DNA of 64,000 bases from an uncultured Candidatus Saccharibacteria bacterium. Its GTDB lineage: Bacteria > Patescibacteriota > Minisyncoccia > Phycocordibacterales > UBA2100. The position numbers and the translations under genes are program-made. Below are positions 5,991 through 54,639 of the stretch, piece after piece; the first letter of the stretch is position 1; each line of letters begins with the position of its first letter. The stretch is taken from contig CAZUVH010000001.1 of the NCBI GenBank assembly GCA_964623775.1, positions 284,784 to 348,783 on the forward strand. Reading direction: 5' to 3'. The notes beneath the pieces are model-generated. The model did not search any database. It saw only the letters and a program-made list of their open reading frames with translations, and was not told the DNA's origin.

Positions 5991-5993
5991 GCA

Positions 5994-6451: not shown

Positions 6452-6478
6452 CCTCATGTTTTGAGGTACTATTAAAAC

Positions 6479-7372
6479 ATGAGGATTTTAGTCACGGGCG
6501 GTACAGGATTTATTGGCTCAAATATCGTCGAGGCGCTTATTGCGCGCGGCGATGAGGTATTGATCACGGGACACGACGCAGAGCAGCAACCAAAGGGATT
6601 TACCGGAAAATTCTTGCAACCGTCGCTCATCGGTATAGATTGGGATTCGATAGGATCCCTTGACGCCGTCATCCATGAGGCTGCGATCAACGAGACGCAA
6701 TCGAAGGACGAAAAGGAAATGATGCGTGCCAACGTGGATTCCTCACTCGCACTTTTTGAATATACTGTAAAAAATGGCTGCAAGCGAATTGTGTACGCAT
6801 CGTCGACAGCCGTATATGGTGACGGGCCGACACCATACAAGGAAGACCAAGAACTGCAGCCACTTACACCCTATGCCAAATCGAAGGCCAAACTTGACGC
6901 TGAAGTGAAGAAATTTGCCACAAATAATCCGTCCATAACAATCGTCGGTCTGCGGTATTGCAACGTCTATGGACCGGGCGAGTCACATAAAGGTAATCGC
7001 GCGAGCATGATCTACCAGCTGGCGCAGCAGATGAAAAAAGGAAATCCGCGACTTTTCAAATCTGGTGAACAAAAACGCGACTTTATTTATGTAAAGGATG
7101 TTGTCGTTGCAAACCTCCTGGCGCTCGAATCAAAAGAAAATGCCCTTGTAAATTGCGGCTCGGGCACTGCGTCATCGTTTAATGAGATTGTCGCGATTCT
7201 GAATACGGAAATGAATTTGAGTCGCGTTCCCGAATACTTTGACAATCCTATCGCTGCTACCTACCAAAACCACACCGAGTGTGACATGTCGCTTGCGGAA
7301 CAAAAGCTCGGCTTTATTCCCGCTTTCGATATTAAAAAGGGAATCAAGGATTACGTGGCCTCCGGTCTCTAG
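6479..7372 (+). CDS. hldD: ADP-L-glycero-D-manno-heptose 6-epimerase
   Basis: The N-terminus is MRILVTGGTGFIGSNIV. There is a strong match to E. coli HldD/RfaD across VGLRYCNVYGPGESHKGNRASMIYQLAQQMKKGNPRLFKSGEQKRDFIYVKDV. The gene is 297 aa. Confidence 0.85.
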   Translation: MRILVTGGTGFIGSNIVEALIARGDEVLITGHDAEQQPKGFTGKFLQPSLIGIDWDSIGSLDAVIHEAAINETQSKDEKEMMRANVDSSLALFEYTVKNGCKRIVYASSTAVYGDGPTPYKEDQELQPLTPYAKSKAKLDAEVKKFATNNPSITIVGLRYCNVYGPGESHKGNRASMIYQLAQQMKKGNPRLFKSGEQKRDFIYVKDVVVANLLALESKENALVNCGSGTASSFNEIVAILNTEMNLSRVPEYFDNPIAATYQNHTECDMSLAEQKLGFIPAFDIKKGIKDYVASGL

Positions 7373-7776
7373 TTGTTGAGGATCTTCTTGAGCACGTTGG
7401 TGGTTGATCGGCCCGGTACGACCTTCGCGAGGACGATCTTGCCGCCGGTTTTTTCGACAGCGTCTTTTTCAATAATTTGATCGATAGTGCGATCGCCGCC
7501 TTTTACATGCACATGAGGCTGAAGTTTGCCGAGCCATTCGATCGGCGTCGTTTCATCAAAAATGAAGACCGCGTCAACACACTTAAGAGAGGTAATGATT
7601 TCAGCACGCTCAAGCTCGGTGTTGATGGGGCGAGAGTCGCCTTTGTTGCGTTTGACCGATGCGTCAGAATTGACCCCGACGATCAGGATGTCACCATGGC
7701 GTTTGGCCTCTTCGAGGTAGCGGACGTGGCCGACATGGAGGATGTCGAAGCAGCCGTTGGTGGTCACGACGGTCAT
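7369..7776 (-). CDS. hldC: D-glycero-beta-D-manno-heptose 1-phosphate adenylyltransferase (stand-alone HldE domain II)
   Basis: The sequence is MTVVTTNGCFDILHVGHVRYLEEAK…ILIVGVNSDASVKRNKG…RPIN (HxGH cytidylyltransferase-like fold, RfaE-II pattern). The start is at 7776. The longer ORF extending to 7962 has an unsupported 62-aa extension. Confidence 0.8.
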   Translation of the reverse strand: MTVVTTNGCFDILHVGHVRYLEEAKRHGDILIVGVNSDASVKRNKGDSRPINTELERAEIITSLKCVDAVFIFDETTPIEWLGKLQPHVHVKGGDRTIDQIIEKDAVEKTGGKIVLAKVVPGRSTTNVLKKILNN

Positions 7777-7953
7777 TTTATGGGCTTTTGCAGCCCTGGA
7801 GAGCGCCAATGCCGCCCTAAACGGCAATACTTTCGCTCCAGACGATTTTGCGATACGCTTCGGGAATCGCGGCCTTCCCGCGCTCTTATGGGCTCCAAAA
7901 GCACTATTTTTAACTCTGCGTTTCAACGTCATACAGATGTGGTGGCTCAAAGT

Positions 7954-8600: not shown

Positions 8601-8606
8601 GAACCT

Positions 8607-13224: not shown

Positions 13225-13254
13225 ATATGCCCCAACACACGAAATGACCTTGTT

Positions 13255-13524: not shown

Positions 13525-13529
13525 GGGGT

Positions 13530-18328: not shown

Positions 18329-18330
18329 CC

Positions 18331-23744: not shown

Positions 23745-23805
23745 GTTGTCACTATATATCCCGAAGCACCTTAGCAAAAGTACACTTGCAAGAGCGGTTA
23801 AATTA

Positions 23806-23834
23806 TTGACAGCATCTACACTGTCCGCTAACGT
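23806..23834 (+). promoter_or_regulatory. candidate sigma70-like promoter (TTGACA-17-TAACGT) for the downstream cytidylyltransferase gene
   Basis: TTGACA lies at 23806–23811. A 17-nt spacer follows, then TAACGT at 23829–23834, 6 nt before ATG 23841. The -10 element is weak. Confidence 0.3.
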
Positions 23835-23840
23835 CACCCT

Positions 23841-31027: not shown

Positions 31028-31770
31028 AGATTCGTATAATTCCCACGCTCACAGTCAAGGCGGAGCGATTGGTAAAAAGTGTTAAATTCGAGAACCACCG
31101 AAATATTGGGAGCTCAATTGCGGCGGTACGAGTTTTCAATGCGCGCGACGTTGACGAGCTCGTCTTTCTGGATATCGATGCGCGTATGCGGGGTATTGAT
31201 ACGAGGTTACTCGAAGATGTGACAAAAGAATGCTGCATGCCGGTGACACTTGGTGGCGGCGTGAAAACCCTCGAAGACTTCAAAAAGATGCTCGCGATCG
31301 GGGCAGATAAGGTTGCAATAAATACTGTCGCTCTCGATGATCCCGATCTTATCGATGCGGCATCAAAAAGGTATGGAGCTCAATGCGTCGTCGTCTCGAT
31401 TGATGTCCGAAAAATCAATAGTGCGTACGAAGTATTTGGATGTGGTGGCAAGCAGGCAAGCGGAAAGGATCCGGTCGCCTGGGCAAAGGAAGTTGAGAAA
31501 CGAGGTGCTGGGGAGATTTTACTCACCTCGATTGATAACGATGGAGTTATGGAGGGATATGATCTCGAATTGATCAAAAAGGTCTCCTCTGCTGTGAGGA
31601 TACCCATCATTGCTTCGGGCGGAGCGGGGATACCAGCGCATTGTGTCGAGGCTGTTACCGCAGGCGCTTCTGCCGTCGCGGCAGCGAGCATCTTTCAGTA
31701 CACACAAACGACGCCGTCATCGATAAAGGAAGCGTTGAGGAATGCCGGTTTCCCCACGCGGGCCTCATAG
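31021..31770 (+). CDS. HisF-like cyclase subunit homolog (second copy)
   Basis: The sequence is MLKIRIIPTLTVKAERLVK…DELVFLDIDA…TLGGGVKT…SIDNDGVMEGYDLEL…IASGGAG. The start overlaps the upstream stop. Confidence 0.85.
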   Translation: MLKIRIIPTLTVKAERLVKSVKFENHRNIGSSIAAVRVFNARDVDELVFLDIDARMRGIDTRLLEDVTKECCMPVTLGGGVKTLEDFKKMLAIGADKVAINTVALDDPDLIDAASKRYGAQCVVVSIDVRKINSAYEVFGCGGKQASGKDPVAWAKEVEKRGAGEILLTSIDNDGVMEGYDLELIKKVSSAVRIPIIASGGAGIPAHCVEAVTAGASAVAAASIFQYTQTTPSSIKEALRNAGFPTRAS

Positions 31771-31819
31771 GCGCTTAAATTGGCATTCACGTGTTATTTC
31801 TGTAAGATGGTGAGCAACT

Positions 31820-32473
31820 ATGGGACGTACGAAGAAAACGAAGCAAATATCGCATTGGGCGGGTAAAAACGGTAATGCGTATGTAGACCGTAATCCGCAG
31901 ACCACAAAACAAATGGAGAGCCTCTACGCGAAAGATTATGGTGTAAGCCGAAGTTCGATGGATAAAGAATTTTTAAAATCGTTCAACAAGAAGAGTGCGT
32001 CCATTCTCGAAGTGGGGGCGAACGTTGGTACGCAGCTGCAATTTTTGCACGAGCACGGGTTTGCAAAACTTCTTGGCATCGATGTGAATCGCCACGCCAT
32101 AAAAGAAGCAAAGCGTCTTCGCCCGGACGTGGATATTATCGAGGCGTCGGGTTTTGACCTGCCGTTTAAAGACGGAGCGTTTGACCTCGTCTATACTTCA
32201 GGCGTTCTCATTCATATCTCACCAAAAGATATTAAAGACATCATTCGTGAGATGTATCGCGTGTCCCGAAAATATATTTGGGGATTCGAATACTATGCGC
32301 CGAAATATACAGCGGTGACCTACCGCGGAAAAAAGGATCTTTTATGGAAGACGGATTTTGCGGCGCTTTTCCAAAAAGAATTTCCGGATCTAAAAGTCGT
32401 GAAGGAAAAGATCTATAAAATGTCAGACGGTGTAAACGCGACCAAGATGTATTTATTGAAAAAAAGTAACTAA
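31820..32473 (+). CDS. class I SAM-dependent methyltransferase (pseudaminic-acid-biosynthesis-associated methylase-like)
   Basis: Motif I is SILEVGANVGTQL, followed by …LLGIDVN…LVYTSGVLIHISP. The 217-aa gene is embedded between HisF-like and PseA-like genes. That placement matches the ~210-aa methyltransferase family described next to Pse genes. Confidence 0.7.
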   Translation: MGRTKKTKQISHWAGKNGNAYVDRNPQTTKQMESLYAKDYGVSRSSMDKEFLKSFNKKSASILEVGANVGTQLQFLHEHGFAKLLGIDVNRHAIKEAKRLRPDVDIIEASGFDLPFKDGAFDLVYTSGVLIHISPKDIKDIIREMYRVSRKYIWGFEYYAPKYTAVTYRGKKDLLWKTDFAALFQKEFPDLKVVKEKIYKMSDGVNATKMYLLKKSN

Positions 32474-32474
32474 C

Positions 32475-33632
32475 ATGCTCCGGTATTGTACGAAATGCGT
32501 AATGCCCGATACAAAACCTGATCTTTCATTTGACGAAGACGGGGTGTGCGACGCGTGTCGCTCGGCTTCGCATAAGGGTGAAATAGACTGGAGTGCGCGC
32601 GAGGAAGAATTTAAGGACCTGGTGGCAAGGTTCAAAAATAGCGATGGTACGAAGTATGACTGTATTATTCCGATATCGGGCGGGAAGGATAGTCACTACC
32701 AGGCGTTTATGGCCCGAAAATACGGACTCAATCCGCTCATGGTTCATTTCGAGCCCACGATGCGCACCGATCTCGGTCTGAAAAATCTCGAAAATATTCG
32801 CCAATTCGGAGACGTGATCGAGCTCAGGAAAAATCCGTCAGTATACAGAAAAATGGCCGTCGAAGGGTTTCGTCGTGTCGGCGACAATGAGTGGCCGAAT
32901 CACGTGGGTATTTTCACGTTTCCGATAAGAATTGCGGTTGCCTATAAAATACCACTCATTATTTGGGGCGAGAATTCTCAGCTCGAATATGGCGGCCCGA
33001 AGGCGGCCCGAATGAAGAATGTACTCGATCGTCGGTGGCTCGAAGAATTTGGCGGGCTCCTCGGACTACGCATTGAGGACATGATTGGCGTAGACGGTAT
33101 CAAGCATGAAGACCTCATCTCGTTTTTCTATCCGAGTGAGACAGAATTGAAAGATGCGGGAATCACAGGGGTCTTTTTGGGGTATTACTTCAAATGGGAT
33201 GCTCGGTCGCAGGTCAAGCTCATGCAGGAGCATGGTTTTTCTCTGAAAAAAGGGAAGCCAGTCGAGGGCACATATACGCATTATGAAAATTTGGATGAAG
33301 CGACCGTTGCCGTTCACGACTATCTCAAGTTCGTAAAATTTGGATTTGGAAGGACCACTGACCACGTGTGTCTTGATATAAGAAATGGCCGGATGACCAG
33401 GGATGAGGGCGTGAGACTCGTAAAAAAATACGACGGCAAATTGCCAAAAATCTCCATCACTGATTTTCTGAAGTTTTCCGGCATGTCTCGAAAAGAGTTT
33501 GATGGCGTGGTGGATTCATTTACCAATAAGGCGCTTTTCAAGACCGATGCAAAAGGGAGGTTACTTCGAGACAAGAGCGGCAGCTTGATTAAAAAGTATT
33601 CAGATTACGCGATTGAGGCTCAGCGTGGCTGA
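32475..33632 (+). CDS. N-acetyl sugar amidotransferase (WbuX/PseA-like, second copy)
   Basis: The N-terminus is CTKCVMPDTKPDLSFDEDGVCDACRS. The PP-loop is ISGGKDSHY. Its overall collinearity with 12046–13224 makes it a paralog. Confidence 0.8.
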   Translation: MLRYCTKCVMPDTKPDLSFDEDGVCDACRSASHKGEIDWSAREEEFKDLVARFKNSDGTKYDCIIPISGGKDSHYQAFMARKYGLNPLMVHFEPTMRTDLGLKNLENIRQFGDVIELRKNPSVYRKMAVEGFRRVGDNEWPNHVGIFTFPIRIAVAYKIPLIIWGENSQLEYGGPKAARMKNVLDRRWLEEFGGLLGLRIEDMIGVDGIKHEDLISFFYPSETELKDAGITGVFLGYYFKWDARSQVKLMQEHGFSLKKGKPVEGTYTHYENLDEATVAVHDYLKFVKFGFGRTTDHVCLDIRNGRMTRDEGVRLVKKYDGKLPKISITDFLKFSGMSRKEFDGVVDSFTNKALFKTDAKGRLLRDKSGSLIKKYSDYAIEAQRG

Positions 33633-34140: not shown

Positions 34141-35181
34141 ATGCAGATAGGTAAGCGGAAGATTGGTAAGGGGCAACCTGTTTTCGTTATTGCCGAGATA
34201 TCGGGCAACCACAATCAGGACATTAATCGCGCCTACGCGATTATTGATGCCGCTGCTGAAGCGGGTGCAGATGCCGTAAAACTTCAAACCTATACGCCGG
34301 ATACCATTACTATCGATTCAGACCAGGAGTATTTTGTAGTTAGGTACAAGAATCCAGATTGGAAGGGCAAAACGTTGTTTCAGTTGTATGGAGAAGCATA
34401 TACACCTTGGGATTGGCAGCCTAAATTAAAGGAATACGCTGAAAAAAAGGGCCTCATTTGTTTCTCATCGCCATTTGATACCACATCCGTTGATTTTTTG
34501 GAGAAAATGCACGTTCCGGCGTATAAAGTCGCCTCTCCCGAGGTTGTTGATGTGCCACTTCTCGAGAGAATAGGTAAGACAAAAAAACCCGTCATTATGT
34601 CGCGCGGGATGGCGAAGCCCGACGAATTACGTTTTGCTATCAAGACCCTAAAAGGGAGCGGTACTAAAGAGGTGGCGATTCTACACTGCGTGAGCGCATA
34701 TCCCGCAATACCTGAGGAGATGAATCTTGCGACCATTCCAGATATCTCAAAACGTTTTAATGTGGTCGCGGGCCTTTCTGATCATACGCTCGGGATCGAG
34801 GTGCCTGTGGCCGCCGTTGCATTAGGGGCATTGATAATCGAGAAACATCTTACGATGAAACGATTTGATGGAGGTCCTGATGCATCCTTCTCTCTTGAGC
34901 CATCCGAATTCAAAGCGATGGTTTCGGCGATTCGAATTACTGAAAAGTCTGTCGGTAAGCCGATGTATACGTTGCTCGCAGAAGAGAATATCCTCGGTAG
35001 AAAATCTTTATTTATTGTGAAAGATGTAAAAAAGGGAGATTTGTTTACTCCGGAGAACGTTAGATCGATTCGCCCCGGCCATGGACTTGCGCCAAAGTAT
35101 TACAAAAAAGTAATAGGTAAGCGTGCAAAGATGGATGCAAAGAGGGGCACACCACTTTCTCGGGGCCACGTGAGCATATAA
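34141..35181 (+). CDS. pseI: NeuB-family nonulosonic acid synthase (pseudaminic acid synthase candidate) with C-terminal SAF domain
   Basis: The sequence is PVFVIAEISGNHNQDINRAYAIIDAAAEAGADAVKLQTY…GLSDHTLGIEVPVAAVALGA. The C-terminal SAF domain is LFIVKDVKKGDLFTPENVRSIRPG. The assignment as pseI, as opposed to neuB or legI, rests on the co-located pseB/pseC. Confidence 0.8.
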   Translation: MQIGKRKIGKGQPVFVIAEISGNHNQDINRAYAIIDAAAEAGADAVKLQTYTPDTITIDSDQEYFVVRYKNPDWKGKTLFQLYGEAYTPWDWQPKLKEYAEKKGLICFSSPFDTTSVDFLEKMHVPAYKVASPEVVDVPLLERIGKTKKPVIMSRGMAKPDELRFAIKTLKGSGTKEVAILHCVSAYPAIPEEMNLATIPDISKRFNVVAGLSDHTLGIEVPVAAVALGALIIEKHLTMKRFDGGPDASFSLEPSEFKAMVSAIRITEKSVGKPMYTLLAEENILGRKSLFIVKDVKKGDLFTPENVRSIRPGHGLAPKYYKKVIGKRAKMDAKRGTPLSRGHVSI

Positions 35182-36598: not shown

Positions 36599-38134
36599 AT
36601 GCATTCACTTCGTGGAAAACGCGTCCTTATGATCCAGCAGCGAAGCTGGGGCGTGAATGTCGGTCACCATATTGCAAAAGAGCTTCAAAACGAGGGATGT
36701 CTTCTTGCTGCCGTCACGTATAAGAAAAGCATGCACGCGTTCCATGCATCCCAGAAAGACGTTCGTTATGAAATGTTGATCAGCAACGATGCGGTGTACG
36801 AAAATCCGGAGATGTATATAAAGGAGTCTCCCAAGAGTCTTTCGGAGATCACTGAGGCTCTTGGTATCGAAAGCATATGGCCACTCGTCGCGGGCTCGAG
36901 GGAAGTCACCCGGTCATATGGCGAAAAGTATTTTTTTGCCGGAAGGCAGCAGATGTCTGACGATGAGATCATCCACTATATTCAAGGCGCTTTTGCGTAT
37001 GCCACAGAAATATTTGACACTTTTAAGCCGGATGTAATCGTGGCGCCGCTCATAGCAGAGCCATCACATATGATCTTGTATCACCTCGGGCGGATGCGCG
37101 GGATCTATCCCGTCATCGCTACGGATTCAAAAGTTCGCGGAGTATTTATCGTGGTCACGAGTCCTTGGGAAGATTCCGGGCCCTTCTTCGATCGAATCAA
37201 GGAGCTCAATGATGGAATTGAAAGTAAGAATGCGGCTCGAGCACAGGAATACATTCGACGCTTCAGGGAGAAATTTATGCCGCCCCTTTGGGCGGACCGT
37301 TTTCTTCAAGTAGGGTCACTCTGGAAGAGGATTCGTTCAGAGCTTGCGCCATACCGGCTTATATTTCAGTGGTATGTAAACCCTAATTCGAACTGTGATT
37401 GTGTAAAGCCACTTGGCCCCACGCTCGATTGTAGACCCCCGCGAATCATCCTGCGCGACCACTACACAAAGCTAATGCGGACCAGGGCAGCGAAGAAATT
37501 CCCATATTTCCCGCCTGATCGCGTGAAGGAATACGCGTATTATCCTTTGCAGGTCGAGCCGGAAACCACGCTCGATATTATGGCGCTGAATTTTAGCGAT
37601 CAACGTGAGCTAATCCGCAACATCGCACTTTCCCTTCCAGGGGGGATGACGCTCGTCGTCAAAGATCATCCCGCGATGCTTGGGCTGCGCACAGCGGAGT
37701 ACCTTGAAGATATATCTCGCATGCCTAATGTAAAATTGGTGGACTATCGAATACCCAATGAAAGATTGATTCGTTCGGCGTCGCTTGTATTGGCACCGAA
37801 TGCGACGGCTCATGCTGAGGCGACTATGTACGGTATCCCGGGCGTTCAATTCGGACGTCAGGGGACGACACTCAAGCTCCCGAACGTCATCCGGCACACG
37901 GACTACACGACGCTTCCCGCACGCATTGCGGAGCACCTGAGGAAGAAATTCGATACCGCCGAATATGAGCAGTTATTGAACAATTTTGTAGCCTCAGCCT
38001 ATGATGTGGGGGTAGAGACTGACTATTCCAAGGCGTGGGACTACGGAAAAAAAGAGGAACTCGATGCCATGTGGCGACTCTACAGAGGTGGAATCGAGCA
38101 CGTCTTGCAAAAGAGTGCGCGTGACACAGGCTGA
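36599..38134 (+). CDS. KpsS/KpsC-like capsule-polysaccharide-synthesis family protein (second paralog), putative CMP-nonulosonate transferase
   Basis: The motifs YAYYPLQVEPETT, TLVVKDHPAM and VLAPNATAHAEAT match the same family as 14845–16272. Confidence 0.6.
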   Translation: MHSLRGKRVLMIQQRSWGVNVGHHIAKELQNEGCLLAAVTYKKSMHAFHASQKDVRYEMLISNDAVYENPEMYIKESPKSLSEITEALGIESIWPLVAGSREVTRSYGEKYFFAGRQQMSDDEIIHYIQGAFAYATEIFDTFKPDVIVAPLIAEPSHMILYHLGRMRGIYPVIATDSKVRGVFIVVTSPWEDSGPFFDRIKELNDGIESKNAARAQEYIRRFREKFMPPLWADRFLQVGSLWKRIRSELAPYRLIFQWYVNPNSNCDCVKPLGPTLDCRPPRIILRDHYTKLMRTRAAKKFPYFPPDRVKEYAYYPLQVEPETTLDIMALNFSDQRELIRNIALSLPGGMTLVVKDHPAMLGLRTAEYLEDISRMPNVKLVDYRIPNERLIRSASLVLAPNATAHAEATMYGIPGVQFGRQGTTLKLPNVIRHTDYTTLPARIAEHLRKKFDTAEYEQLLNNFVASAYDVGVETDYSKAWDYGKKEELDAMWRLYRGGIEHVLQKSARDTG

Positions 38135-38161: not shown

Positions 38162-39199
38162 TTATCGGCTTTCCTTCCTCAGCCTCTCGTAGTCCGATTT
38201 TGCCATCATTTGTACGAGCTCCTCAAAAGAGGTTTTTGGCTTCCATCCCAATTTTTTCGCAGCTTTTGAAGGGTCACCACGGAGCCAATTAACTTCACGC
38301 GGACGGTAGAATTTTTTATCTATTGAGAGAATCGTGCTGCCTTTCTCGTCGACGCCGATCTCCTTGAGCCCCGACCCCTTCCATGTAATTTTCATATCAA
38401 GCGCCCGTGCTGTGGCTTCGACGAACTCCCTGACCGTGTGCGAAACTCCGGTAGCGATCACAAAATCATCCGGCTTTTTTTGCTGCAGCATCAGGTGCAT
38501 CATCTGCACATAGTCGCCGGCAAAACCCCAGTCCCGCTTCGCTTCGAGATTGCCAAGGGCAAAACTTTTTTGAAGCCCTAACTTTATTTTTGCGAGCGAA
38601 ATAGTGATTTTACGAGTCACAAAATGCTCTCCGCGTCGGGGAGACTCGTGATTGAAAAGAATGCCCGAGCAAATGTAGAGCCCGTGCTTTTCCCGGTACG
38701 AGACGACAAAGTCTTCATGTGCCTTTAGCTTCGCCTCACCGTATGGTGATACGGGTACAAATGGTGATTTTTCATTTTGTGGAGGTGGGGTCGATCCGTA
38801 CATTTCACTCGTCGAAGCTTGGTATATACGTGCTCTCGGCACAATTTTCATCGCTTCATGCACGAGACGTCCAAGTCCGAAATAATCTATCTCGAGCGTT
38901 TCCTCCGGACAAAGAAAGGAAATACCGACATCAGACTGAGCGGCCAGATTGTAGATCTCATCAGGCTTCGATGTCTCCAATGCTCTCGCCAAAGATGCGC
39001 TATCGCGTAAGTTGCCATAGCAAAGATGAAATTTTTTTGACGGTATCAGGGTGCGAAGCCGGGAAGTCGGATCCGAACTCGATCGCCGGAGCAATCCCCA
39101 GACCTCGTACCCGAGCGAAAGCAAGTGCTCAGCAAGATACGAACCATCTTGACCGGTAATACCGGTAATCAGCGCCCGTTTCTGCTTTTTAGACCTCAT
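38162..39199 (-). CDS. gmd: GDP-mannose 4,6-dehydratase
   Basis: The sequence is ALITGITGQDGSYLAEHLL…YEVWGLLRRSSS…IYNLAAQSDVGISF…QASTSEMYG…NHESPRRGE. The start is at MRSKKQK (39199). Confidence 0.9.
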   Translation of the reverse strand: MRSKKQKRALITGITGQDGSYLAEHLLSLGYEVWGLLRRSSSDPTSRLRTLIPSKKFHLCYGNLRDSASLARALETSKPDEIYNLAAQSDVGISFLCPEETLEIDYFGLGRLVHEAMKIVPRARIYQASTSEMYGSTPPPQNEKSPFVPVSPYGEAKLKAHEDFVVSYREKHGLYICSGILFNHESPRRGEHFVTRKITISLAKIKLGLQKSFALGNLEAKRDWGFAGDYVQMMHLMLQQKKPDDFVIATGVSHTVREFVEATARALDMKITWKGSGLKEIGVDEKGSTILSIDKKFYRPREVNWLRGDPSKAAKKLGWKPKTSFEELVQMMAKSDYERLRKESR

Positions 39200-39207
39200 G
39201 ACTGCGG

Positions 39208-39236
39208 ATTTTATCTTGCGCGACCCTATTTCGCAA
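39208..39236 (-). promoter_or_regulatory. candidate promoter for gmd (minus strand TTGCGA-17-TAAAAT, ~8 nt before ATG)
   Basis: The reverse complement of 39231–39236 is TTGCGA. A 17-nt spacer follows. The reverse complement of 39208–39213 is TAAAAT. Confidence 0.35.
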
Positions 39237-39353
39237 CGACCAATTTTTCTTGCCCGTACTCGGGCATAGAAACAATGGAAGTACTCTTGTGGTGCGACCA
39301 ATTTTTCTTAGGGCTTTGCCCTTAGAAACAATGGAAGTGCCCTTGTGGCGCGA
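39236..39353. repeat. two tandem ~58-bp direct repeats, each containing a short hairpin (gcccgTACTcgggc / agggcTTTgccct)
   Basis: Unit 1 is cgaccaatttttctt[gcccgtactcgggcat]agaaacaatggaagtactcttgtggtgcg. Unit 2 is cgaccaatttttctt[agggctttgcccttag]aaacaatggaagtgcccttgtggcgcg. They lie between the GT4 stop and the gmd start. Confidence 0.8.
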
Positions 39354-40541
39354 CTACTCCTTGATCAGATTTTGGTAAAAACTGAGCCACTCCGCACTTC
39401 GTTCAGCACCTCTCATTGTGGCGAGTGTTGCCTTGCCGCCATTTTGCAGCCGTTGGCATAGATCTGGATCTCGCATCACGTCTTCGATTCCCCCCGCAAG
39501 TGCGTGTGGGTCCTCTGGTCTTACAAGATACGCATTCTCGCCATGAGTCAGAAAATCTGTGAGCGCGTCCACGCGAGAGGCGATCACGGGCTTATTCATC
39601 TCAAACGCTTCGAGCGGGACGAGTCCGTACCCTTCGTATCTCGAAGGCACTATGATAAGTGAGCTTTTCTCAAATACGCTTTTTAGATCCGTATTCGAAG
39701 GAACTCTGCCGAGAAAGACGACACGATCGCGTATATCAAGTGAATCGACAAGATGCGCGAACTCGTCTGTTTCGATGAGTGAAGATGAGCTTACAAAAAC
39801 GAATTTCGGGAGCACCTCGCGTGAGACATGTGGTATCGCGCGAAGAAGTATGTCCCACCCCTTACGCGGTTTCATCTGGCCGACGAAAAGCCCGTATGAT
39901 TCCTGCGGAAGTCGTCCGACAATCCCGCTGGGTACCTCGGTTGTTTCCCAGCGTTGCTCGTCAGCCACCAAGGGGATATAGCGGGCATTTTTGATCCCGA
40001 GTTCTTGAGCGATTGGTATGTTGTGTTTGGAATAAAAAACCACCGCGTCGGCATGCATGAGCGGCCAGTGGAAAAAATAACTACGCCACGCCTTAAAAGC
40101 GAATCGTTTCGGGACGCGCTCGTATGCGATGGGCTTTCCGAGCGGATCGTCACGATCCTCGACAAGGTAGTGGTCGTGAAGAAGCCCAGCTTCGGTGAAA
40201 GCGACCGGAATTCCAAAAATTTTTGCAAGCATTGCCGCAACGACACCGACCCTGTTGTTACGCAGCATGTGGACGTGAACAGCATCCGGGCGCTCCGTAA
40301 TCATGAGCACTACCACACGCAGCACGCCAGAAAGAAAACTGCGATATTTATGTACATGTACGCCTGACACTGTAGAGTTGGGCATCTCACCTTTTTCCAT
40401 CCGAGCGATTCCCAGCACCCGCCAGCCGTTCTTGGCCAGCATCCTGCTCAGGATGAATTCCGGAAACATCGTGAGGCGATCGTTGAAACCATAGGGGATC
40501 ACGACGAGGATGGTTGGTTGTTTCGTCATGGTTTTACACAA
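39354..40541 (-). CDS. glycosyltransferase family 4
   Basis: The C-terminal GT4 motif is present (FVSSSSLIETDEF…LIIVPSRYEGYGLVPLEAFEMNKPVIASRVDALTDFL…GENAYLV). Confidence 0.85.
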   Translation of the reverse strand: MCKTMTKQPTILVVIPYGFNDRLTMFPEFILSRMLAKNGWRVLGIARMEKGEMPNSTVSGVHVHKYRSFLSGVLRVVVLMITERPDAVHVHMLRNNRVGVVAAMLAKIFGIPVAFTEAGLLHDHYLVEDRDDPLGKPIAYERVPKRFAFKAWRSYFFHWPLMHADAVVFYSKHNIPIAQELGIKNARYIPLVADEQRWETTEVPSGIVGRLPQESYGLFVGQMKPRKGWDILLRAIPHVSREVLPKFVFVSSSSLIETDEFAHLVDSLDIRDRVVFLGRVPSNTDLKSVFEKSSLIIVPSRYEGYGLVPLEAFEMNKPVIASRVDALTDFLTHGENAYLVRPEDPHALAGGIEDVMRDPDLCQRLQNGGKATLATMRGAERSAEWLSFYQNLIKE

Positions 40542-41338
40542 AACACATTAACAGACCCCTCTTTTTCAGGATACTTTCGTATCGAGTCCGCGTAGGGCTT
40601 TTTCAAGACGATCGGTCCCGTGTCCGTGATGACGTGGAGCTGATAGCCATATCTGTCAAAAATATCCAAAAATGCCTCGGGCGTTTTGCCCGAGCGCGAA
40701 AGCGCCGACGGATTATACTCACACACAATACTGGGCGAATCGGTGCGCAATGTCTCTTGCATGCCTTCAAGCGCGCTCCACTCGCCACCCTCTATATCCA
40801 TCTTTATGAGGTGTATTCTTCGGATGCCGTGTTTCCTTTTGAAGATATCAAGCGTTGTGCCCCTCACTGTCGTATGGGTCGCATTATCGGCGCCGACTGT
40901 GGTATGGCAGCCAGTTGACCCCACGACGTGAAAAAAGGAAATCGGCCCCTCTTTTGAAGTGAGCGCCTCGGGAATGGTTTCAACAGTACTAAATCGCGCT
41001 GTATTTTTACGCAGAAGAGCGAGATTTTCCGTGTCGGGTTCAAAGGCATATACTCGACCTTTTGAGCCGACTCGAGTCGCCATGAGCCGAGTGAAGTAGC
41101 CAATGTGCGCCCCCGCATCGACAACCACCATACCTTCTTTGGTAATGCGACGTAAAAGTCGCGATGTCCCGCGTTCGTATGAACCACTGAGCATCTCCCA
41201 CTTCCATCGCCAGCTGAATTTTTTTGGAAACGAAAAGCCTGCGAATGTCGCCAAGAGTGAGACAACGCCCGATATGAAAAGTTTCGCGACGAAGCGCATC
41301 ATGGTCATCTTACACGCGAAAACGGTATTTGACATCAC
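40526..41338 (-). CDS. FkbM-family SAM-dependent methyltransferase with N-terminal TM anchor
   Basis: The Methyltransf_21 pattern is present (VVDAGAHIGYFTRLMATRVGSKGRVYAFEPDTENLALLRKN…IKMDIEGGEWSAL). The N-terminus is hydrophobic (FISGVVSLLATFAGF). Confidence 0.75.
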   Translation of the reverse strand: MMSNTVFACKMTMMRFVAKLFISGVVSLLATFAGFSFPKKFSWRWKWEMLSGSYERGTSRLLRRITKEGMVVVDAGAHIGYFTRLMATRVGSKGRVYAFEPDTENLALLRKNTARFSTVETIPEALTSKEGPISFFHVVGSTGCHTTVGADNATHTTVRGTTLDIFKRKHGIRRIHLIKMDIEGGEWSALEGMQETLRTDSPSIVCEYNPSALSRSGKTPEAFLDIFDRYGYQLHVITDTGPIVLKKPYADSIRKYPEKEGSVNVFCVKP

Positions 41339-41379
41339 TGGCGTTTCTTGGTTTTAAGTGATATTTTGCCCTCTATACC

Positions 41380-42183
41380 ATGGCAAAATCTGACTCAAAA
41401 GGGAGCATCAGCTGGGTAGCGGTATCCGGCGGTTTTGATCCGATCCATATCGGACATGTACGAATGTTAGAGGAGGCCAAAAAATTGGCGGATAAGCTCG
41501 TAGTCATAGTCAATAACGACAATTGGCTTCGCGACAAGAAAGGATACGTGTTCATGCCTCAAAAGGAGCGAGCCGAACTCATCAAATCGTTTCCGTTTGT
41601 AGATAAAGTGGTCGTAACCGATCACAAGAAAAACGATCCGGACAGGAGTGTGGTTCGCGCTCTCGCAAAAATAAAACCAGCGATATTTGCGAACGGGGGA
41701 GATCGAAAAGGTGTACAAGACATTCCTGAAGCACTCCTATGTAAAAAAATGGGCATCAAAATGGTTTTCAATGTCGGATATGGAGGCAAGGTGCAGTCGT
41801 CTTCTTGGATGATTAAAGACGTGAGTCGTAATTTCCTACGGAGCGTTCGTCCATGGGGAGAATTTTATAGCTGGGACAAAGGTGAGCAGTGGAATCTAAA
41901 AACGATCTACATACAGGCCGGCAAGCGACTCTCTCTCCAGTATCACAATCACCGCTCGGAGCTCTGGACACTCGTGCAGGGGGACGCGACTGCCACGATC
42001 GAAGCAAATGGTGAGCTCAAACGCATTCCGCTTATGGTCGGGCAGACCTTTGTCGTACCGAGTCGTGCCCATCATCGTCTCGAATCAAAAAAAGGCGGCA
42101 TACTTGTGGAAGTCGCGCTCGGAAATTTTGATGAAAACGATATTGTGCGCCTCCACGACGATCATGGTCGCACTGGAGCGTGA
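41380..42183 (+). CDS. fusion protein: HIGH-motif cytidylyl/adenylyl-transferase-like domain + type-II phosphomannose-isomerase (ManC C-terminal) cupin domain
   Basis: The N-terminal ~150 aa are WVAVSGGFDPIHIGHVRMLEEAKKLADKLVVIVNNDNWL (HldE-II/TagD-like). The C-terminal ~110 aa are RPWGEFYSWDKGEQWNLKTIYIQAGKRLSLQYHNHRSELWTLVQG…HRLES…VEVALGNFDENDIVRLHDDHGR (ManC PMI cupin signature). Confidence 0.7.
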   Translation: MAKSDSKGSISWVAVSGGFDPIHIGHVRMLEEAKKLADKLVVIVNNDNWLRDKKGYVFMPQKERAELIKSFPFVDKVVVTDHKKNDPDRSVVRALAKIKPAIFANGGDRKGVQDIPEALLCKKMGIKMVFNVGYGGKVQSSSWMIKDVSRNFLRSVRPWGEFYSWDKGEQWNLKTIYIQAGKRLSLQYHNHRSELWTLVQGDATATIEANGELKRIPLMVGQTFVVPSRAHHRLESKKGGILVEVALGNFDENDIVRLHDDHGRTGA

Positions 42184-42274
42184 ACACCGTTTTGCCCCTT
42201 GATTTACGTTACGTTTGTGCCCTATTGACCCCGCGCATTTTTTGAACCAAGATGCACGTGTCAGGCCATATTTC

Positions 42275-43084
42275 ATGAAAAAAAGCGCTAAAATACCAGC
42301 CATTAAGGACATACCCGTAGTCATTTTCTGCGGAGGTAAGGGGACGCGCCTCCGAGAGGAGACTGAGATCATTCCAAAACCAATGGTGCGCATCGGTGAT
42401 AAACCGATCCTGTGGCACATTATGAAGATTTACTACACACAGGGATTTCGCAATTTTATTCTCTTGCTTGGATATAAAGGTGAAAAGATCAAGGATTATT
42501 TTTCAAACTACATGCTCTATGCGAGCGACCTGACGCTTTCGCGCGACGCATGGGGCATGGAAACGAGCTATCATAAAAAGCCGGCCGAAGACTGGCGCAT
42601 TACTTTTGTAGAAACCGGACCCGACACCATGACGGGGGGTCGATTGAAAAGAATAGAGTCTTTCATTCGGGCACCTTTTTTTATGCTCACATATGGTGAT
42701 GGTGTCGCCAACGTCAATTTGAAGGAGCTTATTAAAACGCATTCCGAAAAAGAAGCTCTGGTCACGATCACGGGAGTACATCCACCAGCGCGATTTGGAG
42801 AATTGCATATCGATGACGGGCACGTGGTTGCTTTCAATGAAAAACCAAAAACGGACGCGCTCATCAACGGAGGTTTTTTTGCTGTGGACCGCAAAGTCTT
42901 CAAGCACATACCAAAAGGAGATGAAATCAATTTTGAGATGGATGTACTGCCAGGCATCGCAAAGGATTCAAGAATGGCCGCGCATCGTCATGAAGACTAT
43001 TGGCAATGTATGGATACGATTCGTGACATGGAAGTGCTCAATGAGAAGTGGGCAAGTGGGAAGGCGCCCTGGAAAATATGGTAA
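42275..43084 (+). CDS. rfbF: glucose-1-phosphate cytidylyltransferase
   Basis: It is collinear with Salmonella RfbF/DdhA (VVIFCGGKGTRLREETEIIPKPMVRIGDKPILWHIMKIY…TGPDTMTGGRLKR…TYGDGVANVN…INGGFF…WQCMDTIRD…GKAPWKIW). Confidence 0.9.
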   Translation: MKKSAKIPAIKDIPVVIFCGGKGTRLREETEIIPKPMVRIGDKPILWHIMKIYYTQGFRNFILLLGYKGEKIKDYFSNYMLYASDLTLSRDAWGMETSYHKKPAEDWRITFVETGPDTMTGGRLKRIESFIRAPFFMLTYGDGVANVNLKELIKTHSEKEALVTITGVHPPARFGELHIDDGHVVAFNEKPKTDALINGGFFAVDRKVFKHIPKGDEINFEMDVLPGIAKDSRMAAHRHEDYWQCMDTIRDMEVLNEKWASGKAPWKIW

Positions 43085-44043
43085 AAGATTTTTGGGCCGG
43101 TCGACGCGTGCTCGTGACCGGGGGCGCGGGATTCATCGGATACGCGCTCGCACGCAAACTCCTGGCATCGGGTGCCAAGGTCTCGATTCTTGATATACGA
43201 CCACTTCCTCCGTATGCGACCAAAGAAGAGAAAAAGAAATTCCACTTTGTACGCGGGAGCGTGACTTCGGAAAAGACGGTCGGCGCCATTCTAAAGAGCA
43301 AGAAGATACAGACCGTATTTCATTTGGCCGCGGAGGCGATCGTAGATCGAGCGCTCCACGACCCTGAAAACGCACTTGACTCAAATATTCGCGGGACATG
43401 GGTGCTTCTTGAGAGCGTCCGACAATCGAGGGGTGTGGAAGATATTGTTATCGCGTCCTCTGATCACGTGTACGGAACTGATGCAAAGCCCCCGTTCCAC
43501 GAGAGCTCTCCGCTCGGGGGGAGTAGTCCATACGATATATCAAAAAGTTGCACAGATTTGATCGCAAAGATGTATGCGAAGACGTTCGGGCTACCCATTG
43601 TGATTGCACGCTGCGGCAACGTTTTTGGGCCCGGGGACATGAATTGGACGAGGCTCATACCCGATGCACTGCGCTCACTCTCAAGTGGTAAGCCGCTACA
43701 ACTCCGCAGCAATGGGAAGTTTTCCCGCGACTATGTGTATATCGATGATGTTGTCGATGCGTATATCGCGCTTGCGCGAAATCTTCGGAAGAAGAATTTA
43801 CATGGCGAAGCATTCAACTTTGCCTTTGGAAAACCACTTTCGGTAAAAGCCGTCCTACGGCACATCAAAGAGGGCGCAGGACGATCGGTCCCTTTTACGA
43901 TTGCGAATACCGCACGGCACGAAATCAAGTCGTTGCATTTGGATTCCACAAAAGCAAAACGCATCCTTTCGTGGGCACCTTCCGTATCACGAGAAGAGGG
44001 CTTTAGACGGACTATTGCGTGGTATGCTGATTTCTTCAGTTAG
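43078..44043 (+). CDS. rfbG: CDP-glucose 4,6-dehydratase
   Basis: The N-terminus MVKDFWAGRRVLVTGGAGFIG is collinear with RfbG/DdhB. There is a 7-nt overlap with rfbF. Confidence 0.85.
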   Translation: MVKDFWAGRRVLVTGGAGFIGYALARKLLASGAKVSILDIRPLPPYATKEEKKKFHFVRGSVTSEKTVGAILKSKKIQTVFHLAAEAIVDRALHDPENALDSNIRGTWVLLESVRQSRGVEDIVIASSDHVYGTDAKPPFHESSPLGGSSPYDISKSCTDLIAKMYAKTFGLPIVIARCGNVFGPGDMNWTRLIPDALRSLSSGKPLQLRSNGKFSRDYVYIDDVVDAYIALARNLRKKNLHGEAFNFAFGKPLSVKAVLRHIKEGAGRSVPFTIANTARHEIKSLHLDSTKAKRILSWAPSVSREEGFRRTIAWYADFFS

Positions 44044-44046
44044 ACC

Positions 44047-44742
44047 ATGAGCAGAACGGAACTATCCATCGTCCTCCCCGCATACAACGAATCCGAGCAT
44101 CTTCTGAATGTCGTCAGCGAAATGGCGAGTGTGTTCAATGCGTCAGGGATCTCGTATGAAATTCGTGTCGTGGATAATGGCTCGACTGATTCCACCGAAG
44201 AAGTCATCAAGAAAATCGAAGCAGAAAACCCACACGTCTCCCATCTTCATTTGGAAAAGAATCGCCACTACGGCGGCGGGATCCTTGCGGGACTTGAGGG
44301 CGCAAAAGGTGAGGTGGTTGGGTGGGCGGATGCGGATGGGCAGGTAGACCCAAGGACTATTGTGCAGCTATACAAGGAGATGCGTGAAAAGGGGCTTGAA
44401 TTGGGAAAAGCCGTGCGCGTCGTGCGGCCCGAGGCGCTCGGTAGACGCATCCAGACGAAAGTCTACAACATACTTTTTCGAATTTTTTTCCTCACTTCGT
44501 ATACCGATATGAATGCAAAGCCAAAATTACTTACTCGCAGAGCTGTAGACATCTTGCAGTTACAATCGCACGATTTCTTTCTCGATCCCGAATTCGTGAT
44601 AAAAGCTCTCAGGAATCATGTGCCGATATGCGAGGTTCCCACTGTATGGCGAGAGCGTCAGAGCGGGCGGACCCGTATCCACGTATTGGCCGCACTTCAA
44701 TTTTTGAAATCAATGGTGGTGTATCGGCTCGGATTGAAGTAA
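44047..44742 (+). CDS. glycosyltransferase family 2, polyprenol-phosphate sugar transferase type (DPM1/ArnC-like)
   Basis: The sequence is LSIVLPAYNESEHL…RVVDNGSTDST…GGGILAGLEGAKGEVVGWADADGQ. Confidence 0.8.
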   Translation: MSRTELSIVLPAYNESEHLLNVVSEMASVFNASGISYEIRVVDNGSTDSTEEVIKKIEAENPHVSHLHLEKNRHYGGGILAGLEGAKGEVVGWADADGQVDPRTIVQLYKEMREKGLELGKAVRVVRPEALGRRIQTKVYNILFRIFFLTSYTDMNAKPKLLTRRAVDILQLQSHDFFLDPEFVIKALRNHVPICEVPTVWRERQSGRTRIHVLAALQFLKSMVVYRLGLK

Positions 44743-44760
44743 TATAGTGATCCAATACAT

Positions 44761-46035
44761 ATGAAATATCCAGCGCACCACTTCGTAAAAACCGGACACA
44801 TCACGCATTGCCAGGTATGCAATGGCAAAAAGCTTCACACCATTTTGGATCTCGGTCACCAGCCACTGTGCGACACGCTTCTTACGGAAAAGACGCTCCA
44901 TGAGCCCGAAAAGACATATCCGCTCCGCATGATCTGGTGCGAGAGCTGCACCAACGTCCAGATTGATTACTGCGTCGACGGAAAAGAGGTCTACCACCCG
45001 AAGTATCCTTATAAAAGCGGTGTCACCAAAGAGCTCGTCGCATACCAAGTCAAAATAGCGGAAGGTCTCATCAAAAAATTCGGGTTGAAAAAAGGCGACC
45101 TCGTCGTTGATGTCGGATCCAATGACGGGACGCTTCTCAGTGGTTTCAGGGGCACGGGCGTCAAATTTCTCGGTGTTGAGCCTACTGATATCGCAAAAAT
45201 TGCACGAAAGAACGGTATTCCGACGGTGCAAGCCTTTTTCGACATTAAAACTGCGCGTGAAATAAAGAAAAAGCATGGGCCCGCGTCGGTTGTCGTGACG
45301 ACAAACACGTTTGCTCACATGCAGACACTCGGCGAATTTATCATGGGTGCCCACACGCTCCTTAAGAACGATGGCGTGTTCGTCGCCGAGACACATTATC
45401 TTCTCAACGTCATTGAAGGCGGACAGTTCGATACGATCTATCACGAACACTTGCGCACCTATTGCCTGCGCTCCCTCGTGAGGCTTTTTGATCAATACGA
45501 TTTCACCGTGATCGACGTCGAGCGGGGAGACAGATATGGCGGCAATATCCGCGTGTACGTGCAGAAGGGTAAGGGAAGAAAGGTCTCAAAGGCAGTCGAA
45601 GATTTGCTTGCTCTTGAGAAAAAGTCCGGTCTAGACAAGCTTTCCACCTACACCGTTTTCGCCGATCGCGTGAAAAAGGCGCGGCTGCATTTCATGGACT
45701 TTCTGATTCAGACAAAAGGGGCTGGGAAATCAATTGTAGGCAACTCATGTCCTGGCCGGTGCGCGACACTCCTTAATTATTACGGTGTCGACCGCGAAAT
45801 GATCCCGTATCTCGCGGAACAGCCTGCCTCGCTGAAGCTCGGGCACTATGCCCCCGGCACACACATACCAGTCGTTAATAATCAACGTCTTATCGACGAG
45901 CAACCTGATTACGTAGTGCTCATGGCATGGCACTATGCGCAGCCGATCATGGAACAATTGAAGGCACGCGGACTCCGGTCAGATTTTGTCATCCCACTGC
46001 CTGATTTTCGCATTGTGAAAAATTCGGAAGTATAG
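44761..46035 (+). CDS. NDP-hexose C-methyltransferase (TylCIII-like)
   Basis: The N-terminal zinc ribbon is CQVCNG…CESC. Motif I is LVVDVGSNDGTLL. The C-terminal C-methyltransferase domain is GKSIVGNSCPGRCATLLNYYGV…YVVLMAWHY. Confidence 0.8.
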   Translation: MKYPAHHFVKTGHITHCQVCNGKKLHTILDLGHQPLCDTLLTEKTLHEPEKTYPLRMIWCESCTNVQIDYCVDGKEVYHPKYPYKSGVTKELVAYQVKIAEGLIKKFGLKKGDLVVDVGSNDGTLLSGFRGTGVKFLGVEPTDIAKIARKNGIPTVQAFFDIKTAREIKKKHGPASVVVTTNTFAHMQTLGEFIMGAHTLLKNDGVFVAETHYLLNVIEGGQFDTIYHEHLRTYCLRSLVRLFDQYDFTVIDVERGDRYGGNIRVYVQKGKGRKVSKAVEDLLALEKKSGLDKLSTYTVFADRVKKARLHFMDFLIQTKGAGKSIVGNSCPGRCATLLNYYGVDREMIPYLAEQPASLKLGHYAPGTHIPVVNNQRLIDEQPDYVVLMAWHYAQPIMEQLKARGLRSDFVIPLPDFRIVKNSEV

Positions 46036-54500: not shown

Positions 54501-54639
54501 AGAATTTTTTCCCCGGACAATCTCGTCATTTGCACTTCTCTCGGTGCAGTTGAAATGATATTTTAAGAGATCAAAAAGAGATAAAGAAAAGATAAAGTGA
54601 TTGTTTGCACAGCGGCGGGCACGTATGTATAGTGCCGCC

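Follow-up and report, generated by a model that had tools for sequence, protein, structure and literature searches.

The question raised by this locus is which pathway is served by a protein that joins a HIGH-motif nucleotidyltransferase to a type-II phosphomannose isomerase (PMI) cupin. The protein, 267 amino acids (aa) long, is encoded by a fusion gene at 41380..42183 of a 64,000-nucleotide stretch of DNA (the window) from an uncultured Candidatus Saccharibacteria bacterium. Based on its domains and on the gene neighbourhoods of its relatives, we propose, with a probability of roughly 0.55, that this protein has two activities in nucleotide-mannose synthesis and is a functional counterpart of bifunctional ManC, which combines PMI with GDP-mannose pyrophosphorylase (GMP). 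The C-terminal cupin would act as a metal-dependent type-II PMI interconverting fructose-6-phosphate and mannose-6-phosphate, and a separately encoded phosphomannomutase (PMM) would provide the middle step. The HIGH-motif domain, occupying the place of the GlmU-fold guanylyltransferase of canonical ManC, would be a mannose-1-phosphate nucleotidylyltransferase, converting mannose-1-phosphate and a nucleoside triphosphate (NTP) into NDP-mannose and pyrophosphate. The product, most probably GDP-mannose, would be used by the adjacent GDP-mannose 4,6-dehydratase (GMD), which opens a 6-deoxyhexose branch, and by the glycosyltransferases encoded in the surface-glycan island around the gene. The first-pass annotation had already supposed a non-canonical ManC counterpart coupling isomerisation to nucleotide activation. 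Our comparisons lend support to this idea, with both domains as it described them and their catalytic motifs kept.

The fusion is genuine, conserved and widespread, mainly in Patescibacteria (Candidate Phyla Radiation, CPR). Its open reading frame (ORF) runs from an ATG start to a TGA end with no internal stop, and contains all the motifs that had been quoted for it: GGFDPIHIGHV, RPWG, LSLQYHNHRSELWTLVQG, VEVALG and DIVRLHDDHGR. As described earlier, a HIGH-motif nucleotidyltransferase and a type-II PMI cupin lie in one polypeptide: in Pfam, aa 16-108 match CTP_transf_like (PF01467; 54.2 bits, cutoff 21) and aa 154-260 match MannoseP_isomer (PF01050; 68 bits, gathering cutoff 23.6; E = 1.1e-18; model positions 11-116 of 116). 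Structure prediction, which had been suggested as a check, likewise gave two folded domains. The AlphaFold2 model, for which 87 homologues served as input, has a mean pLDDT of 88 and consists of a Rossmann-type domain and a beta-barrel, with a linker of lower confidence at aa ~131-150; the HIGH-motif domain spans aa ~13-148 and the PMI cupin aa ~154-264. A search of a large protein collection with the fusion protein returned 6353 matches at E<=1e-3. Both Pfam domains are present in 117 of the 120 best of these, at 64-100% identity, and fused homologues are 250-295 aa long. Among representatives of 50%-identity clusters, matches number 12,325 at E<=1e-3, of which 191 reach E<=1e-30, and the motifs of both halves occur in at least 50 of the best 150, at identities down to ~35%. 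Named carriers among the best matches are Pacebacteria, Parcubacteria and Kaiserbacteria. The fused gene is also found in metagenome-assembled genomes (MAGs) of Woeseia and other Gammaproteobacteria (L007-L009), and in marine and sediment metagenomes. Neighbour-joining trees of both domains, comparing the fusions of Patescibacteria with those of Woeseia, are star-like and carry no support values, and an independent origin is not claimed.

The possibility that assembly or a frameshift merged two separate genes can practically be dismissed. Although the halves are truly separate, adjacent genes in some Patescibacteria (L041, L049 and others), three independent Logan contigs (short assemblies) encode the identical 267-aa product and one continuous frame is kept in hundreds of full-length homologues at 34-83% identity. 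The thousands of homologues, mainly from Patescibacteria, and the invariant catalytic motifs in both halves argue in the same direction. A domain-architecture search had been recommended to learn how widespread the fusion is; since the architecture proves common in Patescibacteria, its description as 'unusual' stands in the sense of uncharacterised and falls in the sense of rare. The named homologues bear only the labels 'adenylyltransferase/cytidyltransferase family protein' or 'HldE-like'. A full-text literature search found no description of the HIGH-domain plus PMI-cupin architecture or of the operon treated below, in which the HIGH-motif domain, PMM, PMI and GH130 are encoded together. 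The 'cupin' of one CPR paper is a cupin-type phosphoglucose isomerase (PGI) of PF06560, another family than PF01050 (PMC7304191). Databases already contain the architecture in large numbers, labelled generically, and what would be new is the functional assignment and a second fold for NDP-mannose synthesis.

The N-terminal domain (N-domain) belongs to the cytidylyltransferase-like superfamily, with PF01467 and the generic TIGR00125 (56-57.5 bits vs a cutoff of 27.7) above their cutoffs and both the HxGH and an ISST-like motif present. Conservation was counted in 87 fused homologues and, separately, in 40 N-domains, standalone or fused. Residues G17, G18, D20, P21, H23, G25 and H26 are invariant in both sets, and so is G106-G107-D108-R109 (87/87 and 40/40), which resembles the KGGDY segment of HldE domain II. 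N45, N46 and D47 do not vary among the fused homologues, nor do K137, Q139, S140-S142 and W143, of which K137 and S140-142 are retained in all 40 N-domains; in the alignment, this last segment pairs with 'QLNSSS' of the archaeal protein 3glv. The earlier label 'HldE-II/TagD-like' is correct at the level of the superfamily but does not hold at that of the family, where both curated cutoffs are missed: the HldC model TIGR02199 (rfaE_dom_II) gives 66-68 bits vs an equivalog-domain cutoff of 181.5, and the TagD model TIGR01518 47-49 bits vs an equivalog cutoff of 165.4. Among the Foldseek neighbours, the uncharacterised 3glv is the best match in the PDB (TM-score 0.83), followed by the CyTase domain of Fom1 (5x3d, 0.81) and TagD (1coz, 0.78); HldC of B. 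pseudomallei (5xf2, 0.73) is the structural neighbour with the highest identity (30%). A profile of the 40 N-domains matches ECT at 4.8e-21, TagD at 2e-16, HldC at 1.7e-13, CCT at 3e-9 and Fom1 at 5e-8, and the E-value for 3glv is comparable to those of ECT, TagD and HldC (5e-21 to 2e-13). Because the domain is roughly equidistant from ECT, 3glv, TagD and HldC in this profile search, it is, judged by sequence, a subfamily of its own and no orthologue of any characterised member. Standalone genes of ~150 aa encoding it, 50-73% identical to the fused domain, abound in Patescibacteria and are also present in DPANN archaea and in some marine Bacteroidetes. In one database protein (P0149, 417 aa) it is fused to a PMM (PF03332, 2e-16); the N-domain of this protein is 61% identical to that of the fusion studied here, and its PMM part is 38% identical to the PMM of the operon.

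The C-terminal domain aligns to positions 358-466/467 of TIGR01479, the model of bifunctional GMP/PMI. The isomerase assignment was said to fail if the metal-binding residues of the cupin were lost, and these are retained: Q187, H189, R192, E194 and W196 are invariant in the 87 fused homologues, and H191 is found in 72 of them. By this conservation, and by analogy, Q187, H189, E194 and the likewise invariant H232 are candidate metal ligands. Gln-His-Glu-His is also the zinc ligand set of type-I PMI, which serves here as a lead and not as a test. The closer matches in Foldseek include the Thermococcus phosphomannose isomerases 7zvm (root-mean-square deviation 1.4 Å) and 7zvy (TM-score 0.81); the E-values of cupin-type PGIs and of numerous other cupins are similar. 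Both Thermococcus proteins are single cupins of ~105-110 aa named PMI and superpose on the domain with deviations of 1.4-1.8 Å and TM-scores of 0.77-0.81, but they are standalone proteins and only 19-23% identical. A sequence search of the PDB with the cupin alone gave insignificant matches only (QdtA, E 0.66). Outside the fusions, the closest cupins are of two kinds: standalone proteins of ~115 aa that share the C-terminal motif 'GNFDENDIVR.EDD.GR', and the C-terminal ends of archaeal proteins of 594-643 aa (L067, L069, L071; MAGs of Methanosarcinales and Nanoarchaeota). In the latter, Pfam finds NTP_transferase, a eukaryotic-type PMM and MannoseP_isomer, the cupin being 42-45% identical to ours and ending likewise in GNFDENDI...GR. 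Read from their domains, these archaeal proteins hold all steps from fructose-6-phosphate to GDP-mannose in a single chain. They follow the same logic as our fusion, the joining of steps of the GDP-mannose pathway, yet differ in using the canonical GlmU-fold transferase and in including PMM. By the Rosetta-stone argument, the joining of the closest cupins to NTP_transferase and PMM supports a true PMI role of this cupin subtype. A cupin that instead acts on NDP-sugars, as an epimerase or 3,4-ketoisomerase like RmlC, FdtA or QdtA, or that merely binds a regulatory ligand, is very improbable. The fold does host NDP-sugar epimerases and ketoisomerases, QdtA is the very weak match just mentioned, and the neighbouring GMD produces a 4-keto-6-deoxy intermediate. 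However, PF01050 is passed with a wide score, RPWG and the Q-x-H...E...H signature are shared with the PMI domains of ManC, and the nearest cupins are fused to GMP and PMM or lie beside PMM and GH130, where keto-sugar chemistry is not expected.

The resemblance to bifunctional ManC/AlgA/XanB (TIGR01479) lies in the type-II PMI cupin at the C-terminus, which bears identical signatures (PF01050), and in the nucleotidyltransferase that precedes it within one chain. In addition, ManC is encoded, as the fusion protein is, beside gmd/fcl at the edge of surface-glycan clusters, as in the colanic-acid and O-antigen clusters of E. coli. The difference is in the transferase: ManC has a GlmU-fold NTP_transferase of ~350 aa (PF00483), the fusion a HIGH-motif Rossmann domain of ~150 aa (PF01467), and Pfam finds no PF00483 match on the fusion protein. 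The whole protein scores 64.5 bits against TIGR01479 (cutoff 373) and 59 against PRK15460 (cutoff 859), with only the C-terminal ~110 model positions matched. Because the GlmU-fold domain is lacking and the family cutoffs are missed, the fusion protein lies by sequence outside the ManC family, although it probably works like bifunctional ManC.

The evidence for mannose comes from gene neighbourhoods. We compared 159 de-duplicated loci from GTDB genomes, metagenomes and contigs encoding database homologues. They were scored with six-frame BLAST markers whose identity was verified by Pfam or NCBIfam; the GMD and Fcl (GDP-fucose synthase) markers cross-match other SDRs, and counts therefore use identity thresholds and de-duplicated loci, a true GMD being one with at least 50% identity to the GMD of the window. 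Loci in which N-domain and cupin are separate genes at most 4 kb apart (split pairs, n=25) and loci with the fused gene (n=28; other loci, n=131) have sharply different neighbourhoods. Genes of GH130, which Pfam names beta-1,4-mannooligosaccharide phosphorylase, are found in 22 of the 25 split-pair loci, mostly as a tandem of ~400 and ~645 aa (split-pair vs N-domain-only loci, Fisher p = 3e-18), and in eight of the 25 a HAD-type PMM lies between N-domain and cupin. Such loci usually run N-domain - (DUF1361) - (PMM) - cupin - GH130 - GH130, with neither GMD (0/25) nor a GlmU-fold transferase (0/25). GH130 beta-mannoside phosphorylases make or use alpha-mannose-1-phosphate. Since these operons hold PMM and GH130 but no GlmU-fold transferase, the N-domain would be the transferase of the pathway. 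It is fused to PMI in some lineages and to PMM in others and stands, in the operon, at the position of the archaeal GlmU-fold domain, so that non-orthologous displacement is the simplest reading.

Around the fused gene, both GH130 and PMM are absent (0/28 each). A true GMD is present in 6/28 fused loci vs 0/131 others (p = 1.8e-5), and GMD or Fcl in 8/28 vs 0/131 (p = 3.7e-7). At L002, L003 and L084 the GMD gene (565-588 bits vs a cutoff of 415) is immediately divergent from the fusion gene, and a gene for GDP-fucose synthase comes next, in L003 and L084 after a short intervening gene (NUDIX by Pfam in L084); the immediately divergent GMD of L001 scores 408 bits vs the same cutoff. No ManC-like gene was found within 8-10 kb on either side of the fusion gene in these four loci. 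Polyprenol-phosphate-mannose synthases take GDP-mannose as well. In Woeseia L008 and in L110 the fusion gene is the last of a tight co-directional set of 2OG oxygenase, PMT, GT2+GtrA_DPMS_TM and fusion, and in L004 a split, DPMS-like GtrA_DPMS_TM/GT2 pair follows it. These neighbouring consumers, GMD/Fcl and DPMS/PMT, are the single basis for favouring GDP as the nucleotide.

An NDP-mannose other than GDP-mannose, for instance ADP- or CDP-mannose used by GH130 enzymes or dedicated glycosyltransferases, with GMD adjacency reflecting only common membership in glycan islands, is unlikely. It would agree with the use of ATP or CTP by all members of the fold that, as is generally known, have been characterised, and with the split pairs, whose partners are GH130 enzymes and never GMD. 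It is at odds with the fused loci, several of which have GMD above its curated cutoff and Fcl immediately divergent and no other source of GDP-mannose in view, and with the operonic PMT/DPMS-type genes of L008 and L110, the characterised homologues of which depend on GDP-mannose.

About equally unlikely is that the cupin is a PMI while the N-domain activates another phosphate ester, with glycerol-3-phosphate, phosphoethanolamine or phosphocholine giving a CDP-alcohol or FMN giving FAD, so that the fusion merely co-regulates two steps of glycan decoration. The N-domain shares superfamily and motifs with TagD, CCT, ECT and the CyTase of Fom1, its profile matches the CTP-dependent ECT and TagD as well as or better than HldC, its best PDB match is uncharacterised, and standalone N-domains mostly lie in housekeeping or generic glycan contexts. 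But those relatives act with CTP on phospho-alcohols or phosphonates, and the TagD cutoff is missed (49 vs 165). Around the N-domain and fusion loci there was no sign of a teichoic-acid or phospholipid setting, and genes using CDP-glycerol or CDP-alcohols were not seen to recur as neighbours. The N-domain-PMM fusion, the N-domain-PMM-cupin-GH130 operon with no other transferase and the fact that it is the fused form that lies beside GMD/Fcl would all be left unexplained.

Several points weigh against the ManC-like role that we favour. We know of no enzyme of the HIGH-fold superfamily that uses GTP or an alpha-hexose-1-phosphate. The characterised relatives use CTP (TagD, CCT, ECT, Fom1) or ATP (HldC, RibL), and HldC takes the beta-anomer. 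A GlmU-fold transferase lies near the fusion gene in four fused loci; that of the window is a true RfbF and that of L099 is RfbF-like, and the other two (L090, L107) carry no assignment. About 85 of the 89 standalone N-domain loci have no mannose genes within 8-10 kb, and no fused locus has an adjoining PMM gene. The co-occurrence counts carry an ascertainment bias, the loci having been fetched by similarity to the query, and the comparison covers loci rather than whole genomes, elsewhere in which a canonical ManC may sit. Nucleotidylation of a hexose-1-phosphate by the HIGH fold does have a precedent, because the HldC of B. pseudomallei turns over beta-glucose-1-phosphate as a surrogate substrate (PMC7993394).

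The first-pass annotation had left the substrate open as a 'heptose, mannose or glycerol-type' compound. Comparative genomics points to mannose, and the heptose part has to be given up since the window has its own HldC. A heptose pathway enzyme, with the cupin replacing GmhA as sedoheptulose-7-phosphate isomerase or serving as an accessory PMI, is improbable and was rejected. Such an enzyme is suggested by rfaE_dom_II being the best specific NCBIfam match of the N-domain, by HldC being its structural neighbour of highest identity (30%), by the GT9, HldD, GmhA and HldA genes of the window, and by one locus (L086) with a GT9 gene directly after the fusion gene and a fusion of HldA with a cupin. 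HldC and the N-domain agree in fold and share the HxGH and a GGD-type motif, and HldC acts on a manno-configured sugar-1-phosphate. Nevertheless, a bona fide HldC is encoded inside the heptose cluster of the window, 32 kb away, and passes the curated cutoff (191.2 vs 181.5 bits) at which the N-domain, 37% identical to it, stops at 68. In L086, L036, L037 and L048, too, the N-domain family occurs alongside canonical HldC-GmhB genes. HldA was found in 1/28 fused and 0/25 split-pair loci, and GmhA in no fused locus apart from the distant cluster of the window. The neighbours of the fusion and N-domain are genes of mannose (PMM, PMI, GH130, GMD), not of heptose, and HldC takes beta-heptose-1-phosphate whereas the substrate expected for the N-domain is alpha-mannose-1-phosphate. 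The HldA-fused cupin of L086, finally, is only 27% identical to the cupin studied here.

GDP-mannose is the entry to mannosylation, to fucose and other 6-deoxyhexoses and to polyprenol-phosphate-mannose, and Patescibacteria have tiny genomes, whose metabolic reconstructions show many apparent gaps. If mannose-1-phosphate is activated in them by the HIGH-fold domain, a large group of proteins that today go by 'adenylyltransferase/cytidyltransferase family' or 'HldE-like' is mis- or under-annotated, and a second, unrelated fold would carry out a textbook reaction. A possible route from scavenged beta-mannosides to activated mannose would be sketched by the N-domain-PMM-PMI-GH130 operon. More tentatively, and with somewhat less confidence than would favour it over its negation, we suggest that the family is the main, hitherto unrecognised GDP-mannose pyrophosphorylase of Patescibacteria and of some DPANN archaea and Proteobacteria. 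It would be the first HIGH-motif (class-I-aminoacyl-tRNA-synthetase-like) nucleotidyltransferase known to guanylylate an alpha-hexose-1-phosphate, GlmU-fold ManC would have undergone non-orthologous displacement in a central sugar-nucleotide pathway, and the split form would couple GH130 phosphorolysis of scavenged beta-mannosides directly to the making of nucleotide-mannose. The prediction is directly testable, the protein being small and soluble.

Table. Position, strand and basis of assignment of the fusion gene, its domains and motifs, and other features of the window.
Feature	Position	Strand	Basis
Fusion gene, HIGH-type nucleotidyltransferase + type-II PMI cupin, 267 aa	41380..42183	+	ORF, Pfam PF01467 + PF01050
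N-terminal cytidylyltransferase-like (HIGH-motif Rossmann) domain, aa 1-150; proposed mannose-1-phosphate nucleotidylyltransferase	41380..41829	+	TIGR00125, Foldseek
HxGH (HIGH) nucleotide-binding signature G17-G18-F-D20-P21-I-H23-I-G25-H26	41428..41457	+	conservation
G106-G107-D108-R109 motif	41695..41706	+	conservation
K137-V-Q139-S140-S141-S142-W143, counterpart of superfamily C-terminal (R)TxGISTT / ISSTxxR motif	41788..41808	+	conservation, 3glv alignment
Type-II PMI cupin domain, aa 151-267	41830..42183	+	PF01050, TIGR01479 C-terminal end, Foldseek
R157-P158-W159-G160 signature at start of PMI cupin	41848..41859	+	invariant 87/87
Cupin motif 1, Q187-Y-H189-N-H191-R192-S-E194-L-W196; candidate metal ligands Q187, H189, E194	41938..41967	+	conservation
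Cupin motif 2, H232-R233-L234; candidate fourth metal ligand H232	42073..42081	+	invariant 87/87
GMD, third gene of divergent operon	38162..39301	-	TIGR01472 426.4 bits vs cutoff 415
GT4 glycosyltransferase, divergent from fusion gene	39354-40541	-	Pfam
FkbM-type methyltransferase, divergent from fusion gene	40526-41338	-	Pfam
RfbF (glucose-1-phosphate cytidylyltransferase), downstream	from 42215 (probable start 42275)	+	NCBIfam 313 bits vs cutoff 300
NDP-hexose 4,6-dehydratase-family gene, below CDP-glucose dehydratase cutoff	43048-44043	+	NCBIfam/Pfam
GT2	44047-44742	+	NCBIfam/Pfam
Sugar C-methyltransferase	44761-46035	+	NCBIfam/Pfam
GT9-like heptosyltransferase	4740-5990		cluster gene
HldD	6479-7372		NCBIfam 245 bits vs cutoff 275
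HldC (heptose-1-phosphate adenylyltransferase)	7369..7836	-	TIGR02199 191.2 bits vs cutoff 181.5; six-frame scan
GmhA	7912-8475		223 bits vs cutoff 276
HldA	8607-9578		309 bits vs cutoff 345

The surroundings of the fusion gene in the window are those that had been described, with RfbF and then a dehydratase-family gene (below the CDP-glucose dehydratase cutoff) on the same strand and the GMD operon divergent. For the downstream set (42215..46035, +) gene calls were also taken from an identical Logan contig. A promoter and terminator scan of 41200-42400 gave the same counts as shuffled controls. The FkbM and GT4 neighbours recur in a Kaiserbacteria locus (L004). A Wzy_C/TPR gene lies downstream in eight fused loci, with SecA next in L084 and L087; the window shares this synteny (Wzy_C/TPR at 52290-54500, SecA at 58713-61292), broken by inserted glycan genes. 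Between the two, 54601-57471 encodes a 956-aa protein with a signal-like segment at its N-terminus and an alpha/beta-hydrolase (lipase) core that resembles LCAT/PGAP1.

Both domains also occur in other settings. Among database proteins, the N-domain is found with a Shedu SduA_C nuclease domain, then lacking the GGDR and SSS motifs (P0201), behind an HNH endonuclease (P0236), with a Cys-rich N-terminal extension (P0244) and with a weak DAC-like C-terminus (P0161). In a Woesearchaeota MAG (L061:5633-6994) a related HIGH-type domain forms the C-terminus of a 453-aa NAD-dependent epimerase/dehydratase, which hints at a subfamily working on nucleotide sugars. Standalone cupins of the same subtype are present in Alphaproteobacteria (L072, L074 from Rhizobium, L077 from Sulfitobacter), with a GMD-like gene and GT4 genes nearby in L072. 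The tandem GH130 genes of Patescibacteria (L013, L022, L028, L035, L041, L044, L046, L047, L053 and 13 other loci; e.g., L044:9517-12887) encode a protein of ~380-480 aa and then one of ~645 aa with two GH130-like stretches, often with a DUF1361 membrane protein upstream; they may break down scavenged beta-mannosides or build a beta-mannan.

The heptose genes at 4740-9578 form a complete-looking nucleotide-heptose cluster in an apparent Patescibacterium, and GmhB was not found anywhere in the 64-kb window. ADP-heptose genes are usually discussed for Gram-negative lipopolysaccharide. The HldA(PfkB)-cupin fusion of L086 (14004-16302) is 432 aa long and is accompanied by an HldC-GmhB fusion of 336 aa (GmhB 182 bits vs a cutoff of 178); in the former, the cupin joined to the kinase may do the work of GmhA, the SIS-type isomerase.

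Elsewhere in the window, a 511-aa ORF (36599-38134) has no Pfam or NCBIfam match and a 475-aa ORF (14845-16272) matches only Capsule_synth (PF05159), weakly; both may be divergent KpsC/KpsS-like transferases. ATP-citrate-lyase-like genes lie inside a glycan island (16293-19014): ATP-grasp_2+Citrate_bind (16293-17438), a CoA-ligase-like ORF (17435-18328, recognised by eye only) and a protein with a citrate-synthase C-terminal domain (18331-19014). Two paralogous sets at 11405-14300 and 30419-33632 each comprise a HisH-like glutamine amidotransferase, a HisF-like cyclase and a Cys-rich ORF of ~390 aa (no Pfam match). Near them lie NeuB (34141-35181), a dehydratase resembling PseB/FlaA1 (20448-21437) and, recognised by eye, an aminotransferase of DegT type (29215-30378). 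Two CTP_transf_3 genes are also close, one found by Pfam (23841-24584) and one by eye on the minus strand (22986-23837). This grouping suggests the synthesis of an amidino-modified nonulosonic acid.

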